Assembly: GCA_951406725.2 (NCBI GenBank)
Contig: OX597826.1
Location: 74,648,001-74,712,000 of the forward strand
Length of the DNA: 64,000 nucleotides
Reading direction: 5' to 3'
DNA from: Octopus vulgaris
Lineage: Eukaryota
Shown in pieces: positions 3,391 through 60,926 of the stretch (the stretch's first letter is position 1; each line of letters begins with the position of its first letter). A program made the position numbers and the translations under genes. The notes beneath the pieces were generated by a model. The model was not told the DNA's origin and did no database searches. It saw only the letters and a program-made list of their open reading frames with translations.

Positions 3391-3927
3391 ACAAGTATGT
3401 TTATATGTAATGTAATTCATACCTATGTACACTCACACACACACACACACTCACACAGATACACACACATACGAAAGCCAGTGCTGGCAGAGCCACTCCC
3501 AAATAGACTTCAGAGATTTCGGTTCAAAACCACATTTCGCAAGTATGGAGACACACACACATTACTTGATACGTACAGGCATACAGACAGACAGGCAAAC
3601 ATTCAGTGAGATGTGTGTGCGTGCGTGCATGTGTACGTGTGTGTGTTTGTACGTGTGTAACATTTGCATTTAATATGAAATGTTTTACAAATCGTCAAAA
3701 TTGCCAAGAATACTTCTTTCTCCTTAACGAATCATTTCGGTCTGAATGTCTGTTCGTAAAGCGGGAGGGAGATCGTTAAGAGAATAACTAGATCTCGTAG
3801 CAATAATTCTATAAGCGTTCTTGTAGAAGAAATCGCCATTAAGAATTTGAAAAAAAAAAAAAAAAAAAAATAAATTTTGTCTGGATTTCTGCGATGAAGA
3901 ATTACCGTTATTATATACAGATAAAAG

Positions 3928-4347
3928 CCTGCAGACTCGTTAGCAACGTTGGACAAAATTCCTAACAGTATTTCGTCTGTTTTTACGGCCTGAACACAAG
4001 TTCCGTCGAGGCTGACTATACCTTTTACCTATTCGGGAACCGATAGAATAAGTACCAGTCATGTACTGGGAATGATCTAATCGACTGGCTCCCTCCCCTC
4101 AAAAACTGATGGCCCTGTGCCAAAACTTGAAACCATTACGATACAGAATCGTTTGCATGCCGGGCGATGATGCTTAACGGCATTTCGTCTGTCTTCATGT
4201 CCTGAATTCAAATTCCGCCGAGGTGGACTTTGCCTTTCATCCTTTCGGGGTCGATAAATTAAGTACCAGTTTAAAACTGTGGTCGATGTAATTGACTTAC
4301 CGCCTCTCCGAAATTGATGGCCTTGTGCCAAAATTTAAAAGCATTAT
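3928..4347 (+). mobile_element. Two adjacent old SINE family B copies (short-tail type)
   Basis: Both carry the GCAGAATCGTTAGC-like head, the GACTTTGCCTTTCATCCTTTCGGGGTCGATAAA-like core and the GGCCTTGTGCCAAAA tail. Confidence 0.8.
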
Positions 4348-20597: not shown

Positions 20598-20893
20598 CCT
20601 GGGCTTCAGAGGCCCACAGCTCTTCAATATCCTCCCGAAGAACCTGAGGGACCTGCATGGGGTGGATACGGATGTCTTTAAAGTAGGACTGGATCTCTTC
20701 CTGTCAGGTGTCCAGGATGAACCAACTTCACGGCAGGAGGTGCAGATGAGGGCAGCTGCATCAAACTCTCTCATGCACCAAATGGCAGTTGCTAAAAAGC
20801 ATTCGTGAGGTAAAATCATGTAGCAACACCAAATGGCGGTGCCCCAGCATGGCCACAGCTCAAGAGCTGAAACTGGAAAACATAAACAAACAT
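20598..20893 (+). mobile_element. 3' end of a CR1/L2-group LINE (ORF2 C-terminus plus 3' UTR)
   Basis: Open frame 20599-20808: LGFRGPQLFNILPKNLRDLHGVDTDVFKVGLDLFLSGVQDEP...RAAASNSLMHQ, then GGCGGTGCCCCAGCATGGCCACAGCTCAAGAGCTGAAAC. Confidence 0.8.
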
Positions 20894-23895: not shown

Positions 23896-24228
23896 GCATC
23901 CATACACAGGGGCATGTGACCCTCCATGTATGTGACCCTCCATGTATGTGTATGCACTGTGTCTGTCTGCGTGCACCTATGAAGATGTGCTTGTGTGAGA
24001 GTGTGTATGTGTATTTGTCCTTAACTCTCCGTGTGTGTTCGCGCGCTTGCACGCGTGTGTGTGTGTGTGTGTGACTCTTAGTTTCTCAGCACGAGATAAT
24101 CACATTGATAGATGTGATTATGTACGGATGGCCGACCACATCCACATTACAAGAGAAATCCGTCTTTTGTTTTCTCAGCTTTGCAACGTTAACTAGCACC
24201 CCCCATCCCCATCCCCATCTCCATACAC

Positions 24229-24829
24229 CTATTTCTTTATTACCCACAAGGGGCTAAACACAGAGGGGGACAAACAAGGACAGACATAGGTATTAAGTCG
24301 ATTACATCGACCCCAGTGCGTAACTGGTACTTAATTTATCGACCCCGAAAGGATGAAAGGCAAAGTCGACCTCGGCGGAATTTGAACTCAGAACGTAAAG
24401 ACAGACGAAATACCTATTTCTTTATTACCCACAAGGGGCTAAACACAGAGGGGACAAACAAGGACAGACAAAGGTATTAAGTCGATTACATCGACCCCAG
24501 TGCGTAACTGGTACTTAATTTATCGACCCCGAAAGGATGAAAGGCAAAGTCGACCTCGGCGGAATTTGAACTCAGAACATAATGGCAGACGAAATACCTA
24601 TTTCTTTACTACCCACAAGGGGCTAAACACAGAGGGGACAAACAAGGACAGACATAGGTATTAAGTCGATTACATCGACCCCAGTGCGTAACTGGTACTT
24701 AATTTATCGACCCCGAAAGGATGAAAGGCAAAGTCGACCTCGGCGGAATTTGAACTCACAACGTAACGGCAGACGAAATACCGCTAAGCATTTCGCCCGG
24801 CGTGCTAACGTTTCTGCCAGCTCGCCGCC
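24229..24829 (-). mobile_element. SINE family B trimer (one head, three ~185-bp bodies)
   Basis: Junctions GAAATACC|TATTTC at ~24410 and ~24595; a single TSD CCATCTCCATACAC at 24215-24228 and 24828-24841. The core GACTTTGCCTTTCATCCTTTCGGGGTCGATAAA..AGTACC resembles the Deu/Nin SINE domain. Confidence 0.9.
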
Positions 24830-25009
24830 ATCTCCATACACATGTACATAAATACACACACTGATGCACATCCATACATACACACACACACTGATTCATA
24901 CGGTTAATGTCTACACCTACGTACACACATGTAGACGCGTTCCTCAGAACACGTAGACCCCAGGTTTCAATTAAGTACACACACATGTATATTACACATA
25001 CATTTCAAG

Positions 25010-29137: not shown

Positions 29138-29370
29138 TATTTCTTTATTACCCACAAGGGGCTAAACATAGAGGGGACAAACAAGGACAGACATAGGTAT
29201 TAAGTCGATTACATCGACCTCAGTGCGTCACTGGTACTTAATTTATCGACCCCGAAAGGATGAAAGGCAAAGTCGACCTCGGCGGAATTTGAACTCTGAA
29301 CGTAGCGGCAGACGAAATACCGCTCAGCATTTCGTCCGGCGCGCTAACGTTTCTGCCAGCTCGCCGCCTA
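29138..29370 (-). mobile_element. SINE family B monomer with 16-bp TSD
   Basis: GTTGTCAACATAAACC at 29122-29137 and 29371-29386. Confidence 0.9.
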
Positions 29371-35108: not shown

Positions 35109-35333
35109 CCTATTTCGTTATTACCCACAAGGGGCTAAACACAGAGGGGACAAACAAGGACAGACATAGGTATTAAGTCGATTACATCGACCCCAGTGCG
35201 TAACTGGTACTTAATTTATCGGCCCCGAAAGGATGAAATTCAAAGTCGACCTCGGCGGAATTTGAACTCACAACGTAACGCAGACGAAATACCGCTAAGC
35301 ATTTCACCCGGCGTGCTAACGTTTCTGCCAGCT
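35109..35333 (-). mobile_element. SINE family B monomer
   Basis: Colinear with 29138; short flanking repeat CTATCC. Confidence 0.85.
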
Positions 35334-35794
35334 ATCCGTTATTCCTCAACCATTATGACTGTAAGAAGTGCAGATAAAATCATTGCATCGTCTGCTCGCT
35401 TGGCTCTCAGCTTCACCCCACATCACTAGATTCTTCATGTCGAAAATTTCTGCGGAATTCGGCATAAAATGTTCCTAATTAGTCTTTCTTATATTTAGGC
35501 AGTGTGTTACTTATTCCAAGGCCCCAATAATTGCAGATATAAACTTGAACTTGTATGTATGTATGTATATGTATGTATAATCTGTGTCTCTATGTATGTG
35601 TGTGTGGCTCTATCTAACATCTACGCGTGTATGTATGTGGATAAACCAAGTCAAAACTGTAAGAGATTGGCCCCTTTTTTCTCTCATATCACGTGTATAA
35701 GGAGAAGGTGGATTATTTTCTAAGTGCCCACTTTCTACACTATCTTATTAAAATCCATGGAATCTTAACGTAGCCTACATTTTTGCTCAACCCC

Positions 35795-35955
35795 TCTTTT
35801 ACTTGTTTCAGTCATTTGACTATGGCCATGCTGGAGCACCGCCTTTAGTCGAGCAAATCGACCCCGGGACTTATTCTTTGTAAGTCTAGTACTTATTCTA
35901 TCGGTCTCTTTTGCCGAACTGCTAAGTTACAGGGACGTAAACACATCAGCATCTG
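35795..35955 (-). mobile_element. SINE family A, 3' half
   Basis: GTTTCAGTCATTTGACT...GGAGCACCGCC...GGGACGTAAACAC. Confidence 0.85.
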
Positions 35956-36344
35956 TTTATCTATTATACTATTATTCACTGTATCCGTCTTGTTTTAAGA
36001 GGGAACGTATAATTCTAGGTAAATATGACTGCTATTTCTTGCTGGTTAATTGTACCATGTGGAAGTTTCATCGTTGGAAACGATATCTTACAAGACTTTC
36101 GATAGTTCAATGTCCCATTTATCAAACACATAACTTAATTTCTAACTAGTTCCAATTGATTATTTCTTGCGGGATTTTTAACTTGGGAAGATATTGACCG
36201 CCATTAGTTATTCTACAATGTAATGGCTTCCCAGTTAACCGCTCAAAGGAATAAGCATTTCATCAATTCAAGGAAATGCTACAAGAAATGGAATAAATCT
36301 GTTGAAATATCTTAATCATAGCATCAAATTTTTTTATATCATTC

Positions 36345-36712
36345 TTTACTACTCTAGGCACAAGGCCCGAAATTTTTGGTGAGTGGGGTCAGTCGATTAG
36401 ATCAACTCCAGTATGCAACTGGTACTTAATTTATCGACCCCCGAAAGGATGAAAAGCAAAATCGACCTCAGCGGAAATTGAACTCAGAACGTAGCAGCAG
36501 ACGAAATACCTATTTCTTTATTATCCACAAGGGGCTAAACACAGAGAGAACAAACAAGGACAGACAAACTGATTAAGTCGATTAGATCGACCCCAGTACG
36601 TAACTGGTACTTAATTTATCGACCCCGAAAGGATGAAAGGCAAAGTCGACCTCGGCGGAATTTGAACTCAGACGAAATACCGCTAAGCATTTCGCCCGGC
36701 GTGCTCACCGCC
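36345..36712 (-). mobile_element. SINE family B dimer (long-tail unit plus short-tail body)
   Basis: Junction GAAATACC|TATTTC at ~36503-36516. Confidence 0.85.
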
Positions 36713-37357
36713 ATAGTTTGTATATTATTCTGTTGAACGATGAAATTATCTCGGTAAATTTCTGCTTTTGACATCAAATCGATAACTGAAAAACGTTCAT
36801 TTCAGTTGTTTATTAATAATGGAAATAATAACTCTATATTTATGTTATTGAGTGTTTTTTACAACTGATTCCTGTATGTTTTATGAAAGACAAACATTCT
36901 TTCTTTCGTAATTACAGACAAGTGAAGATTTAATACGTAAAGACAGTGCATACATATATACATACATACGATATTTTTCATCCAACGGGTTTTAAGAACC
37001 CAATATTCAACATGCTATCATTTGTGTGTGTGTGTATGTGTGTGCGTGTGTGTGTGTAAATATAAGTGCTGGTGTCAAATGCTGGATGGGCGCATTGGAA
37101 TTCTCTTTAAATGCCTTGCTTCATCTAATGTTACCATTAACATTAAGAAAATAAATAAATAATGAAATATAAAAAGTTCCTTTTGATATTTCTGAATGAA
37201 ACATATTCCGGAAACTCTTAAAATAGTATGAGATAAATTTCTTTCATGAAAATGTATTTTATTTGGATTCCACGTCGAGTTTCATAAAAATAGTCTAACC
37301 ATATTGGTTGCATCAAGGCTTAGCCCGCATCATTTAAACACAGTTACTGAGAGAACT

Positions 37358-41397: not shown

Positions 41398-41790
41398 AAG
41401 GCGGCAGAATCGTTAGCACGCCGGGCGAAATGCTTTGCAGCATTTCCTCTGCCGCTACGTTCTGAGTTCAAATTCCACCGAGGTCGACTTTGCCTTTCAT
41501 TCTTTCAGGGTCGATTAAATAAGTACCAGTTATGCACTGGGGTCGATATAATCGACTTAATCCGTTTGTCTGTCCTTGTTTGTCCTCTCTGTGTTTAGCC
41601 CCTTGTGGGTAGTAAAGAAAAAGGTATTTCGTTTGTCTTTATGTTCTGAGTTCAAATTCCGCTGGAGTCGACTTTGCCTTTCATCCTTTCGGGGCCGATA
41701 AAATAAGTACTAGTTGGACCATGGGGTCGGTTTAATCGACTTAGACCCTTCCACCAAGACTGCTGGCCTTGTGCAAAAATTTGAAGCTAA
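41398..41790 (+). mobile_element. SINE family B dimer
   Basis: Young unit joined at GGTATTTC (41623) to an older short-tail body. Confidence 0.85.
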
Positions 41791-42889
41791 TATTATTTTC
41801 CGATTGCAATTTTTTTCCCACGGTCATACAAACAGATATGAAAGTTTATCTAAAGCAAATCCAATTCCTCCATCCAGATAGAATGTGTTAATTAGGTCAA
41901 GTAGATTTCTTTATATCAAGAGGTGTTGGAGGTGAGTGGTTAAAAGTCAGCGAGACAGCAAGTATGACACCATTTCTTTCCTGCCGCCTCTTTTCTTTTC
42001 TCTTAAAAAAGGGCGTAGACAAGTCGGGCACCGCTGGTAATTGTATGTACAAATAGTATTGTATCATCAAATATCACAAAGAAACTCTGAATGCGGAAGG
42101 ATTTTTTTCCATTGATAAAAGCATTAAAGCATTAGACATCTCACTGTTACACACAAATAAACAACTTTATCTACCGCTTGCTTTGCAGAATTGTGTTTTT
42201 CTGTAATTCGATGAAGTTTTATTTTATCTTATTTTTGTTAACTGTGATAACCCTCTCCCTACGAACAAATACCATTGTTGACACCATATCTAATTGGTCC
42301 TGAATAACGGCTCCCTCTCAGAATAAATTAAATGAGGCTTAGCGAAACTATTTAAGCTGTCACCTCCACAATTTACTTAATCAAGCTAAATCGCCAATGG
42401 CTTATTTTTACAGCTTTTTTTTTTCTAAGTATTTTTCGCTCCCGGTCAGTTGGGTCGATTACTTTGAAGGAACCCCTATGAGAATATCATATGTATGACT
42501 TGGGGCTCCTCTACGTAGTCACAACTTGTTGCTAGAAGTAGGTACTTCACCTCACTCAAATCACACCCGCCGTCTTCAAAGATGTCGTCACATTAGATTA
42601 TGTAGTCCTAGTTGTACGTAGGGAAGTGTCCGTTTGTATCAAGGTGCCAAGATCAAATCTTATTGGTCCATCGCGGAAATTCAGTGACATGCTTAGTACA
42701 CTCTCATCCAGGAAGTTGCCGAGGACCGTTCGTCAGAGAAAGACGGGAAAGACATGTTGGTCACTGATTGAATATCTTTGATCATTGATCGTTCGGGGCT
42801 GAACGGCACCGTCGTATCACGGCTTGAACACCATTAATCAAGAGAATTGATCAGCACCATTAATCATAAAACATTATGAAAGCTGAGAA

Positions 42890-43122
42890 AGGCGGTGAGC
42901 TGGCAGAAACGTTAGCACGCCGGGCGGAATGCTTAGCGGTATTTCGTCTGCCGCTACGTTCTGAGTTCAAATTCCGCCGAGGTCGACTTTGCCTTTCATT
43001 CTTTCAGGGTCGATTAAATAAGTACCAGTTATGCACTGGGGTCGATGTAATCGACTTAATCCGTTTCTCTGTCCTTGTTTGTCCCCTCCATGTTTAACCC
43101 CCTGTGGTCAATAAACAAATAA
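42890..43122 (+). mobile_element. SINE family B monomer
   Basis: GGCGGTGAGCTGGCAGAAACGTTAGC...CCCCTGTGGTCAATAAA. Confidence 0.85.
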
Positions 43123-44499: not shown

Positions 44500-44917
44500 A
44501 CATCTGTCCATCCTCTGAGGTATATACAAGGCATTGAAAGCTACACCAATGCCAGAACGAGACGACACTGCATAGTGTCAAATATATATGTAATGCCATC
44601 ACGCTTCAGGACCAGTTACTGCAACAGCCTGGGTCTCAAGGGCCCACAGCTTTTTAACATTCTCCCAAATATTCTCTGAGGAACTTGCACAAAGTAGAGG
44701 TAGGGGTTTTTAAATCAAAGCTGGGCCTCTTCCTGTCGAGAACCCCAGATGAACCTACCTCACGGCAAGTGGTGCAAAGGAGGGTAGCTATATCAAACTC
44801 CATGCTTCACCAAGTGCCACGTATTAGACGAGGTTCGTCGTAATAACAACAGTGTAGCACAAAACGGCGGTGCATCGGCCTGGCCACAGCTCTGGGCTGA
44901 AACTAAAGAAAAAAAAG
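44500..44917 (+). mobile_element. Second, frameshifted 3' fragment of the CR1/L2-group LINE
   Basis: SYCNSLGLKGPQLFNILP...FKSKLGLFLSRTPDEP; ends GGCGGTG...GGCCACAGCTCTGGGCTGAAAC plus an A tail. Confidence 0.75.
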
Positions 44918-45548: not shown

Positions 45549-45904
45549 GCACACACACATATATATATATTGTTACACTATTCGTTTGTTGTTTGTTTTA
45601 TTTTCCTCTTTGTGTATTATGTGCGGGTGGGTGTTTCCTTTTGTTGGGGTATTAAGACATGACATGTTTGCAGAATGATTAGACGAGACAAAATAAGAAA
45701 AAAAAAATATCTAAAGGAACCTTACATTTTCCCTGACTATATGGGTGAATCTTACAAAATGTTCGGAGCTGTTTGCGAACGAATTAAGTTTGAAAACCAA
45801 ACAAACAATAAAATACTATTCAATGCATTTATACGAGTCAAAATCCCGTGCTTCGAGGATTAACTTAAAAACGAGTCTGAGCCAGCAGTGAATAATAAGC
45901 ATTT

Positions 45905-46320
45905 CTAAAATTGACATCGAAAGCATAAAAAGCAAAGTTGACCTCAGCTGGATTAGAACTCGGTACATAAAGAGAATACTTATTTCTTTACTACCCACAG
46001 GGGGCTACACACAGAGGAGACAAACAAGGACAGACAGACGGATTAAGTCGATTATATCGACCCCAAGGCGTAACTGGTACTTACTTTATCGACCCCGAAA
46101 GGATGAAAGGCAAAGTCGACCTCGGCGGAATTTGAACTCAGAACGTAACGGCAGACGAAATACCGGTAAGCATTTCGCCCGGCTTGCTAACGTTTCTGCC
46201 AGCTCGCCGCCTTTAAGGAGCTACGAGGACATCCCTTCCAGACGGTCACCTATGCCGATCAACCACAACCCTACATAAAGAGAATACTGCAGAATTTTTC
46301 ATCTGATGCTGTAAGAATTA
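45905..46320 (-). mobile_element. Young SINE B (45981-46211) nested in a very old SINE B, 17-bp TSD
   Basis: TACATAAAGAGAATACT at 45964-45980 and 46272-46288; the old body lies to the left and an old head remnant to the right. Confidence 0.8.
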
Positions 46321-46337
46321 AATGAAGCCGTCGTCAA

Positions 46338-46950
46338 AGCGGCGAGCTGGCGAAATCGTTAGCGCGTTGGACAAAATACTCAGCCGCATTCGTTCTTGCC
46401 CTTACGTTCTGTGTTCAAATGCCGCTGAAGTTGACTTTGCTTTTCATCCTTTCAGGGTCGATGAAATAAGTACCAGTCGATCACTGGGTCAGTGTAACCA
46501 ACTAACTTTGTGCCTATAGCAAAAAAAAAAAATAGGATTTAATAATAATTCTAAAGCGGCGAGCTGGCAGAAACGTTAGCGCGCCGGGCGAAATGCTTAG
46601 CGGTATTTCGTCTGCCATTACGTTCTGAGTTCAAATTCAGCCGAGGTCGACTTTGCCTTTCATCCTTTCGAGGCCGATTAAATGAGTACCAGTTACACAC
46701 TGAGGTCGATATAATCGACTTAATCCATTTGTCTGTCCTTGTTTGTTCTCTCTGTGTTTATCCCCTTGTGGGTAGTAAAGAAATAGGTATTTCTTCCGAC
46801 TCTGTAGTTTAGAGTTCAAATTCTGGTGACGTCGACATGGCTTTTATCTTTTAGAGATCGATAAAACATATACCAGTCGTGTAGTGGGGTTGATGTAAAT
46901 GACTTGCCTCCTCCCCTAAAAATTTCTAGCATTGTCCCCAAATTAGAAAG
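46338..46950 (+). mobile_element. Old SINE B followed by a SINE B dimer
   Basis: Copies at 46338-46520 and 46556-46950; dimer junction GGTATTTC at 46786. Confidence 0.85.
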
Positions 46951-54483: not shown

Positions 54484-55478
54484 TTTTTTAATATTTTTAA
54501 ATCGTCGTATCTGGTGGAGCCATCATTTACGGAGCTTCAATGTTACTCTTATAAAATGAAATGCGAAGCTTACCCTTTACCAGTTATAATGATTATATGC
54601 TGGGGAACTCGGAACTCATAACCACTGCCACATCGCAAAACAGAGTTTTAGTTTTGAAATCTCCATATTTGTTTTCTAATGTCTGAAATTTTTCTTCTTA
54701 CAAACATAGTAAAATGTCTGAAATGAGCGGATAACATCGAAGGCAATTATTTGTATTTAAATATTTTTCAAAAAATTTGATTTGTAAAATTTCAGTTCAT
54801 TAAGGTGTACTTATTCAAAATAAATGAAAATATGATCGGTTTTGAGTTTCTTTTAAAAGTTTGATTTAAAAGATATAGTACTTCAAGATATAGTGATGGC
54901 GTTGGTGTATCTAAGCAGGTGTGTGTGTGTGTGTGTGCGTACCGACTTCGATTTTGTCTTTCATCTTTTGTGGTCGATATAATAAGTACAGGTTGAACAC
55001 TGGGAGCGATGTAATCGGCTAGGCTCATCCCACTCGCCCGAAATTGCAGGCATTGTACCAAAATTTGAAATCAATATTGAAAATAAACTTGAGCTGGCGG
55101 AATTGTTAAAATATATACCAGTTTAACACTGGGGTCTATTTAATAGACGTAGCACTTACCTCAAACCAGCTGGTTGGTGTCGAAATTTGAAACGAATATT
55201 TAAAATAAACCACAACGAACTAAGAAAGAACAACTTCCTGGTAGGTCAATGGCATGAAATTTGATAAATAAATTAAGAGGTGACGTACTGACTGGCATAC
55301 GAAAAATATAATTATTGTTTTATTGAAGTGTTTTCTTACAGAAAGGAAAGAAAAATCTAACAAAAATTGTTAACCTCTGTCGACGTAAAGAAGTAATTTA
55401 AAGAAATTAGGAATTAATTACTCTAAAATAATTTACATATCACGGAAATGTTGTTGCATAGCAAGTGACCTGATCTGA

Positions 55479-55820
55479 AGGCAGCGAGCCGGCAGAATCG
55501 TTAGCACGCCGGGCGAAATGCTTAGCGGTATTTCGTCTGTCTCTACGTTCTGGGTTCAAATTCCGCCGAGGTCGACTTTGCCTTTCATCCTTTCGGGGTC
55601 GATAAGTTAAGTACCAGTTACGCATTGGGGTCGATGTAATCGACTTAATCCGTTTGTCTGTCCTTGTTTGTCCTCTCTGTGTTTAGCCCCTTGTGGGTAG
55701 TAAAGAAATAGGTACACGTGTCTGTGGAGTGCTCAGCCACTTACACGTTAATTTCACGAGCAAGCTGTTCCGTTGATAGGATCAACTGGAATCCTGGTCG
55801 TCGTAACCGATGGAGTGCCA
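55479..55820 (+). mobile_element. SINE B fused at GGTA to SINE tail i
   Basis: AAAGAAATA-GGTA-CACGTGTCTGTGGAGTGC at ~55703-55732. Confidence 0.85.
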
Positions 55821-59800: not shown

Positions 59801-59884
59801 CCAACTTACTGGCGTGTAGTTATACACCGGACAGATTTTACGAGACCACTAGTTCCGGATGAGTAATACTGATAACCATGTATA

Positions 59885-60507
59885 AGGCGGCGAGATGGCA
59901 GAATCGTAAGCACGCCGGGCGAAATGCTTAGCGGTGTTTCGTCTGCCGTTACGTTCTGAGTTCAAATTCCGCCGAGGTCGACTTTGCCTTTCATCCTTTC
60001 GGGGTCGATTAAATAAGTACCAGTTACGCACTGGGGTCGATATAATCGACTTAATCCGTTTGTCTGTCCTTGTTTGTCCCCTCTGTGTTTAGCCCCTTGT
60101 GGGTAGTAAAGAAATAGGTATTTCGTCTGTCTTTACGTTCTGGGTTCAAATTCACCAAAGCCGACTTTGCCTTTCATTCTGTCGGGATCGATAAATTAAG
60201 TACCAGTTGCATATTGGGGTCGATCTAATCGACTGGCACCCTCCCCCAAAATTTCTGGCCTTGTGTCTATAGCAGAAACGACTACTGATAACGGCGAGAT
60301 GGCAGAATCGTTAGCACGCCGGGAAAAAATGCTTAGTGACATTTCGTCTCTTGCTACGTTCTGAGTTCAAATTCCGTCGAGGTCGACTGTACACTTCATC
60401 CATTTCGAGATCGATAAAATAAGTACCAGTCGTGCAGTGAGGTCGATGTGATCGACTAGTCTCCTCCCCTGGAATTACTGGCCTCGTGCCAAAATTGGAA
60501 ACCAATA
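59885..60507 (+). mobile_element. SINE B dimer followed by an old SINE B
   Basis: Junction GGTATTTC at 60117; the next copy starts at ~60292. Confidence 0.85.
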
Positions 60508-60926
60508 CTAATAACCATATATACACGCATTAAATCATCCACACGTCCAAAATGAAGGTGTACAAAGGAATTCTAGGTTCTTATGTGAATATAGAGACGC
60601 AAAATGTGTGTTATGGTTTTATAAAAACAAAAAAATTCTGTGCAGATAAATAGCAATAGATAAAACAGTGTATAAACTGTAAAATTTGAGTTAAAAGCAA
60701 ACTGGCTGTTATCTTCATAATTCGATCTGTTGTACCATGGAACTCTTGAGCAAATCTATCATCTTCCTAACGTATTCATAAACTGATCAATAATTCGCGG
60801 GATCTTTCGGATCCTTTGTATTCTAATTTGCAGCTATTTGATATATTTTTGTGTGTGTATATATATATATATATATACCTGTCTATCTGTCACTCTCTCT
60901 ATATATCTATCTGTCTCTCTGTTTAT

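Follow-up and report, generated by a model that had tools for sequence, protein, structure and literature searches.

Seven of the 12 long-tail units of the SINE B family in the window (the whole 64-kb stretch of DNA analysed) end at one and the same nucleotide, position 51, of another copy of the family. The fixed site, the combination of an old resident with a young insert, one insertion flanked by a target site duplication (TSD) and the same junction, seen again in contigs from two further organisms, were observed directly. From these sequences we consider it fairly probable that a young long-tail subfamily has been inserted repeatedly, in the sense orientation, at position 51 of its older kin, through priming by the RNA end and annealing at the head.

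The window is AT-rich animal DNA, dense in microsatellites and with a repeat content like that of an octopus-type genome, and its stop-to-stop open reading frames of at least 120 aa are mostly simple repeats. SINE B is a short, non-coding, interspersed family with about 20 copies per 64 kb and a unit length of ~170-240 bp. Each unit consists of a 50-nt head, a body of ~120 nt and a tail, which is either long, terminating in AAAGAAATA, or one of several short types; a poly(A) tail is absent. The TSDs present at three long-tail loci are perfect and variable in length (17, 16 and 13 bp). Neither ARAGORN nor Rfam gave a match when a tRNA was sought in the family, so a tRNA origin would rest on motifs that we take to be A- and B-box-like. 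The octopus SINEs OK, OR1 and OR2 of Ohshima and Okada (1994) are said to be tRNA-like. MetaSINEs have a 66-bp Meta domain behind the head; when the SINE B body was compared by eye with bivalve MetaSINEs from the first of four supplement parts, no resemblance was seen there. A search for further copies of the SINE B tails within the 64-kb window found none, and between 212,000 and 468,000 contigs per run matched the family in other organisms. Scans of contig collections with the tail pattern gave no match among viral contigs and one each among metagenome and genome contigs, both being the same bacterial stretch with a chance match of 25 nt. The coordinates of the features are compiled in the table.

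Table. Positions of SINE B units, duplications and related features in the window (body divergence is measured against the long-tail majority)
Feature	Positions	Strand	Remarks
Young long-tail SINE inside a very old family copy	45981-46214	-	full length, two-headed outcome; body 3.6%
TSD, 5' copy, 17 bp	46272-46288	-	starts at base homologous to position 51
TSD, 3' copy, 17 bp	45964-45980	-	immediately behind tail
Foreign piece, 57 bp, fragment of another repeat	46215-46271	-	between 5' TSD copy and SINE head
Very old host copy, head side	46289-46336	-	weak similarity
Very old host copy, body side	45855-45963	-	clear similarity to ~45910; covered by contig of run X10
Dimer, first unit with long tail and young head	46553-46785	+	head 2/47 mismatches; body 9.1%; TSD sought, none found
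Dimer, second unit, old short-tail body without head, position 51 onward	46786-46950	+	body 28.4%
Dimer, first unit, long tail	59884-60116	+	head with short-tail-type base 21; body 2.7%
Dimer, second unit, short-tail body from position 51	60117-60281	+	body 13.8%
Dimer, first unit	41399-41622	+	head with short-tail-type bases 21 and 52; body 7.3%
Dimer, second unit, short-tail body from position 51	41623-41790	+	body 15.5%
Dimer, first unit, two short internal deletions	36511-36715	-	body 2.1%
Dimer, second unit, short-tail body from position 51	36340-36510	-	body 10.9%
Trimer, one head, three long-tail units	24229-24832	-	period 184; two position-51 junctions
Long-tail monomer	29138-29370	-	outside the family; 16-bp TSD starting GGT
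Long-tail monomer, 5'-shortened	35109-35333	-	GG behind tail
Long-tail monomer with short-tail-type 5' part	55477-55714	+	GGTA behind tail; TSD sought, none found
Monomer, variant long tail	42889-43121	+	GG not behind tail; TSD sought, none found
Example of 13-bp hairpin, loop ending at insertion site	46587-46614	+	unit positions ~36-63; predicted folds
CCTTGTG word sites	24245, 29153, 36359, 41767, 60259, 4321; also 4605, 23563, 51799

The seven junctions comprise the TSD case, four one-head dimers and two joints within the trimer, and a single head is the outcome in six of them. Four one-head fusions between a long-tail unit and a short-tail body, and a trimer at 24229 with two junctions of the same kind, had been described in the initial annotation, and all were recovered: GGTATTTC stands directly behind the tail at 36503, 41623, 46786 and 60117 and at both trimer junctions (24591-24598 and 24407-24414), and a headless body follows. 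The word occurs 15 times in the window, 14 of them in SINE B. With 20-40 targets and a tolerance of 1 nt on either side, the probability that seven of 12 tails reach position 51 by chance is ~1e-19 to 1e-21, an estimate that assumes independent events; uniform insertion cannot yield this count. SINE B has a single-nucleotide, sense-strand hotspot within its own family, and it does not place nearly all of its copies there, as five of the 12 long-tail units lie outside the family. One of these, at 55477-55714, carries short-tail-type bases at 21, 63, 65 and 76 in its 5' part; it may be a fusion product that went on to act as a source, or else a fusion that has lost the rest of its resident.

A young SINE B lying in a very old SINE B at the fixed site, with a 17-bp TSD, had also been proposed, and the locus at 45964-46288 bears this out. 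Both copies of the TSD are identical and their first letters, AGTATT, are in register with GGTATT at position 51. When the insertion was sliced out, the rebuilt empty site scored above all 300 shuffles against four of six family references (e.g. 94.5 against a shuffle maximum of 68.5, and 98 against 64), and not above shuffles against the two most diverged of the six. The head side of the host was weak when taken alone, its scores being equalled by 7, 10, 30, 141 and 319 of 500 shuffles. The chance that this insertion would hit position 51 (within 1 nt, 20-40 target copies) is 0.006-0.011. The 57-bp piece preceding the young head, to which the initial annotation does not refer, occurs once in the window; its summed depth is ~1e5 in run X5 (organism C), 5e3-9e3 in X8 (organism D) and 130-370 in X10 (organism E), and it is part of a repeat with high abundance in X5 and X8 and low abundance in X10. 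The plus strand of this piece holds an open frame containing YAD, which we take to be reminiscent of the reverse-transcriptase motif. Its identity as a reverse-transcriptase fragment was tried and dropped, Pfam giving no match; the piece may still serve as a lead towards the partner LINE.

The sequences around the junctions bear on what picks position 51, and they fit the earlier proposal that insertion is primed through the 3' end of the element. GG is found behind the tail in four of the five insertions outside the family. In the trimer, the first G behind the tail is absent from the 5' copy of the TSD; since this G is not TSD-derived, the element itself probably continues into G(G). All four old second units have kept a perfect 8-mer at the site (p 0.002 given their divergence), which none of the four solo short-tail copies has, and in the dimer at 41399 the 8-mer is decayed in the 5' copy and perfect in the 3' copy. 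One subfamily has, where its tail begins, 9 nt that are perfectly complementary to the junction (equalled by 14 of 5000 shuffles, in a post hoc comparison). The GG flanks, the intact 8-mers and the tail complement point to an RNA that would end in the first bases of the target. A short match alone is insufficient, because 10 of the 24 GGTATTT words in the window lie outside the family and carry no insertion (the other 14 are within it); additional homology, a hairpin or an endonuclease must contribute. The only target proven by a TSD is itself imperfect (AGTATT) and has almost no hairpin (-1.0 kcal/mol).

A choice of the site by the endonuclease of the partner LINE, which would recognise a C/RGT-like word (the slash marks the nick) or nick a hairpin loop in the manner of Tx1 and SINEU, with the RNA end in a minor role, appears unlikely. 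The word C/RG is common to three targets defined by TSDs (29135, 45977 and probably 35109) and to the family's own site, but the trimer target reads T/GT and its first G is not derived from the target. In a predicted 13-bp hairpin, position 51 forms the 3' edge of the loop, yet in the old residents this hairpin is weak (-1 to -6 kcal/mol). The fold of the whole unit RNA was not better than that of shuffles (z -0.83), and the site hairpin was not the strongest among the 46-nt folds of the unit. Enzymes of this kind do have a parallel, as SINEU-3 and Tx1-Mar target another repeat and leave a 16-bp TSD (PMC4494074, in part); the perfect 8-mer of all old second units is nevertheless easier to understand if it is partly supplied by the RNA.

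Under priming through the RNA end, the partner LINE would nick the DNA with a stagger of 13-17 nt, and the 3' end of the RNA would extend past the tail into GGUA(UUU), for which the best-pairing primer would be position 51 of any family copy; partial matches would act as primers elsewhere. As the RNA and its cDNA share homology with the DNA that lies upstream of the nick, the target's top strand could then prime the second strand within the cDNA, at or before the overlap, and the second head would be dropped. A late crossover would keep the old head and an early one would replace it. Where annealing failed, in a very old host or with a foreign 5' piece, an ordinary two-headed insertion with a TSD would result.

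The heads were diagnosed as old or young by one or two bases, and by this measure head base 21 is of the short-tail type in two of the three scorable dimers (59884 and 41399). This base distinguishes all four solo short-tail copies from long-tail heads outside dimers, of which one in six carries it (p 0.048). It has been lost at 36708, in the dimer at 36340-36715. The head at 46553 is clearly young (p 3e-5 under the divergence of the second unit). A search for leftover old heads in front of the four dimers and of the trimer gave nothing convincing; the best candidate lay upstream of 36708, where, among 30 comparisons, its score against one of the five references was equalled by 1 of 500 shuffles. 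With old and young heads mixed in this way the crossover seems to vary, the B-box half being always new and the A-box half often old. The initial annotation had held that old promoters are overwritten by new ones; this stands for the B-box-like half downstream of the site, which is young in all four dimers, and only in part for the head, which looks old in two of the three dimers that can be scored. The sole two-headed case combines the most decayed host with a foreign 5' piece, as annealing predicts. The dimer at 46553, whose resident is 28% diverged and at which neither an old head nor a TSD was found, is harder to fit. A wider reading, possible but doubtful, is that of an RNA-guided homing, in which homology at both RNA ends would steer an otherwise unspecific LINE enzyme to a single base in any copy of the family and a new B box, body and tail would be spliced behind the resident head. 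Dead copies would then serve as a safe harbour that is refreshed, and each fusion may seed the next round and give rise to tandem arrays.

The single heads could also come from one event, the reverse transcriptase pausing at the hairpin of one RNA and jumping, by way of the short match, to the 3' end of another, or cut RNAs being ligated; template switching has been invoked for SINE chimeras (PMC4824008, in part). We regard this as rather improbable. It would require copies diverged by 11-28% as templates and is unable to give the TSD case, and it predicts young heads, as seen at 46553, although two of three look old. TSD-like repeats flank three dimers, including a 13-bp TSD core around the whole dimer at 41399-41790, but such duplications are expected equally from the resident's own insertion. 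The trimer is set in a perfect 13-bp TSD (24829-24841 and 24216-24228) and its units are within 2.7% of each other, yet they carry different alleles. Rolling-circle copying of one RNA was rejected for it, because unit 1 shares a base with the monomer at 35109 and unit 3 shares two bases with short-tail copies. Serial insertion and template jumping would account for the trimer equally well.

The ages of the units also speak for the preferred reading, insertion into older relatives. Measured against the long-tail majority, body divergence is 2-9% in the first units and 11-28% in the second, and the second unit is the older one in all four dimers (Fisher p 0.003 at 59884, 0.088 at 41399, 0.012 at 36511 and 0.0002 at 46553). 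On these grounds we rejected the reverse order, in which the long-tail copy would be the resident and the short-tail body behind it the insert. Together with the tails at position 51, these ages uphold the site-preferring, repeated insertion into older relatives that had been claimed at the outset.

Copying of one or a few dimeric master genes as units is very unlikely to explain the dimers. Pairwise distances are 17-32% between second units and 4-11% between first units, the former being larger in six of six locus pairs (p 8e-7 to 0.018), and distances of this size exclude a single dimeric master. Among the second units there are at least three types of tail, and the solo short-tail copies and subfamilies with which they share bases differ (the one at 46786-46950 has 8 differences in common with the solo copy 60277). 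A dimeric family, its second units of one origin and as old as the first, is not what is seen here, and the TSD case is no copy of a dimer. Dimeric SINEs are nevertheless common (PMC4758252, in part). Several origins are not forced by the tree of 20 bodies, which excludes 54942 as too short and was not used as proof; it was mostly unresolved (1 of 17 branches starred) and alone does not exclude one origin of the second units. Some junction contigs in the other organisms have a depth equal to ~20-50 copies, and part of the composites may therefore have been multiplied as units. For the four dimers of the window, a dimeric master is largely refuted: the comparison of first and second divergence, set beforehand in the initial annotation as the test that could overturn its reading, did not bear such a gene out.

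The same junction was then sought outside the window, in a comparison that covered the region 45620-46335 in 4 of 24 runs; 20 rows of loose ends were listed besides 1,519 further ones, and 15 joints besides 1,144 further ones, so that the joint counts are incomplete, and contig counts are not locus counts. Among the rows listed, 1,555 contigs of organism C (X5) and 688 of organism D (X8) stop at 46164, and the consensus of their loose letters is the tail (agreement 0.58 and 0.6, respectively); loose ends at the head start number 2,174 and 1,520 contigs. Five of the 15 joints listed lead from the tail end back to 46143-46164, with 64, 38 and 1 contigs in X5, X8 and X10. Three of these five give a period of 184 from the listed values, and the other two do so only if the intervening letters number 15 and 2. 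Two other tail joints, to 46097 and to the head start, are present among the 12 inserts listed. The two-headed 5' joint, in which the old head runs to about position 65 and a new head comes next, was seen in 3 (X5) and 2 (X8) contigs among those listed. In organism E (X10), whose flank differs from the window by ~9% (31/344 letters), no row at 46164 is among the six listed and the tail joint is that of a single contig. The junction is present in organisms C and D and, among the rows listed, hardly seen in E.

The initial annotation had proposed to look for orthologous sites that carry only the old copy. The more distant organism E appears to have the empty site of the TSD locus, which is an indirect indication: its orthologous contig (612 nt) ends at 45963, the base adjoining the TSD, and the depth at 46316-46335 is 41.9 in X10 and none in X5 and X8, whose contigs continue into the tail, to 45999 and 46004. 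In X22, 19 of 12.9 million raw reads matched and one had the junction, too few for frequencies. Although the family is dense and neighbours often stand side by side, chance adjacency, local duplication and assembly artefact can be dismissed, since seven junctions share one base, the units differ in age and tail and hence are no local duplicates, and the junction recurs in two other organisms, whose runs are independent, as well as in a single raw read. A joint between opposite strands, 46148/46213, was also noted, in 36 contigs from X5, 20 from X8 and 24 from X10.

The closest precedent is the Alu hotspot, likewise a SINE inserting into its own family at one nucleotide and in the sense orientation. 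Levy, Schwartz and Ast describe a hotspot at position 133, in the A-rich linker, which they explain by pairing of the 3' poly(A) of the RNA with the target strand; the cases they count, 15,759 in the sense orientation, are whole Alus with the target continuing on either side (PMC2836564). SINE B differs in that its target, GGTATTTC, lies in the promoter region and is of mixed sequence, not an A-rich stretch paired with a poly(A) tail, in that it takes seven of 12 local insertions, and in that six of the seven are one-headed, the incoming copy not remaining whole. The behaviour of SINE B is a much stronger form of Alu-type self-insertion, likely through pairing between its RNA ends and the homologous DNA. 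According to part of Stage and Eickbush (PMC2718515), R1 transcripts carry downstream target sequence, and R1 has 14-bp TSDs and also precise junctions without a TSD; Eickbush et al. have R1/R2 cDNA annealing to the upstream target (PMC3774820, in part). These elements of the 28S gene share with SINE B a fixed 3' junction, and their target-bearing transcripts are proposed to anneal at both ends; unlike SINE B, which encodes nothing, targets its own dispersed family and inserts elsewhere too, they encode site-specific endonucleases and target rDNA. SINE B would resemble an R1/R2-type homing element with Alu-like self-targeting, neither definition fitting it fully.

Crocodilian SINEU-3 and Tx1-Mar strongly prefer a site in Mariner-N4_AMi, a specificity that Kojima ascribes to the LINE endonuclease (PMC4494074, in part). 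As in SINE B, the site lies in a dispersed repeat, tandem copies arise by sequential insertion and there are 5' extensions; in contrast, the target is another element and the tandem copies sandwich the TSD. In the SINE-derived satellites of squamates, as in the SINE B trimer, part of a SINE is repeated in tandem; Vassetzky et al. ascribe these satellites to unequal recombination (PMC10702118, in part), whereas the units of SINE B differ in subfamily and age and have a fixed left border. Octopus SINEs are mentioned, without such behaviour, in passages of PMC4824008, PMC4758252, PMC5804259 and PMC12988792. A search of the openly accessible literature found no report of such behaviour in a cephalopod SINE or of a one-head self-fusion.

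If the reading is true, a non-coding retroelement can gain a strong site preference by RNA-DNA pairing, and about half of the insertions of a subfamily may vanish into older relatives. This would bear on how LINE enzymes choose their targets and complete the 5' junction, also for tools of RNA-templated gene insertion, and would offer a possible route from a SINE to dimers and satellites. Repeat annotation and age plots in such genomes would mix young and old parts in one copy, which calls for caution. As natural junctions number in the thousands, existing assemblies allow the question to be tested computationally.

Several minor features were observed in the same units. The deletions in the first unit at 36511-36715 are of ~16 and 13 nt, lie between short direct repeats and are both in the promoter region; the first unit at 41399 has one deletion of 8 nt. 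The ends of two 3' fragments of a LINE-like element (20598-20875 and 44628-44905) are similar, by eye, to the tail of another SINE family (e.g. 35794-35957 and 51481), and the 67-aa frame of these fragments had no match in Pfam. The word CCTTGTG is found near the 3' ends of long tails, short tails and a second SINE family, with stems that differ, and may be a loop by which a single LINE enzyme recognises them all. Where short-tail copies end in A/T-rich sequence, whole SINE B copies also adjoin them head to tail (3926-4345, 46336-46950 and 59884-60510), and at 59864-60521 one target word was reused by two insertions.
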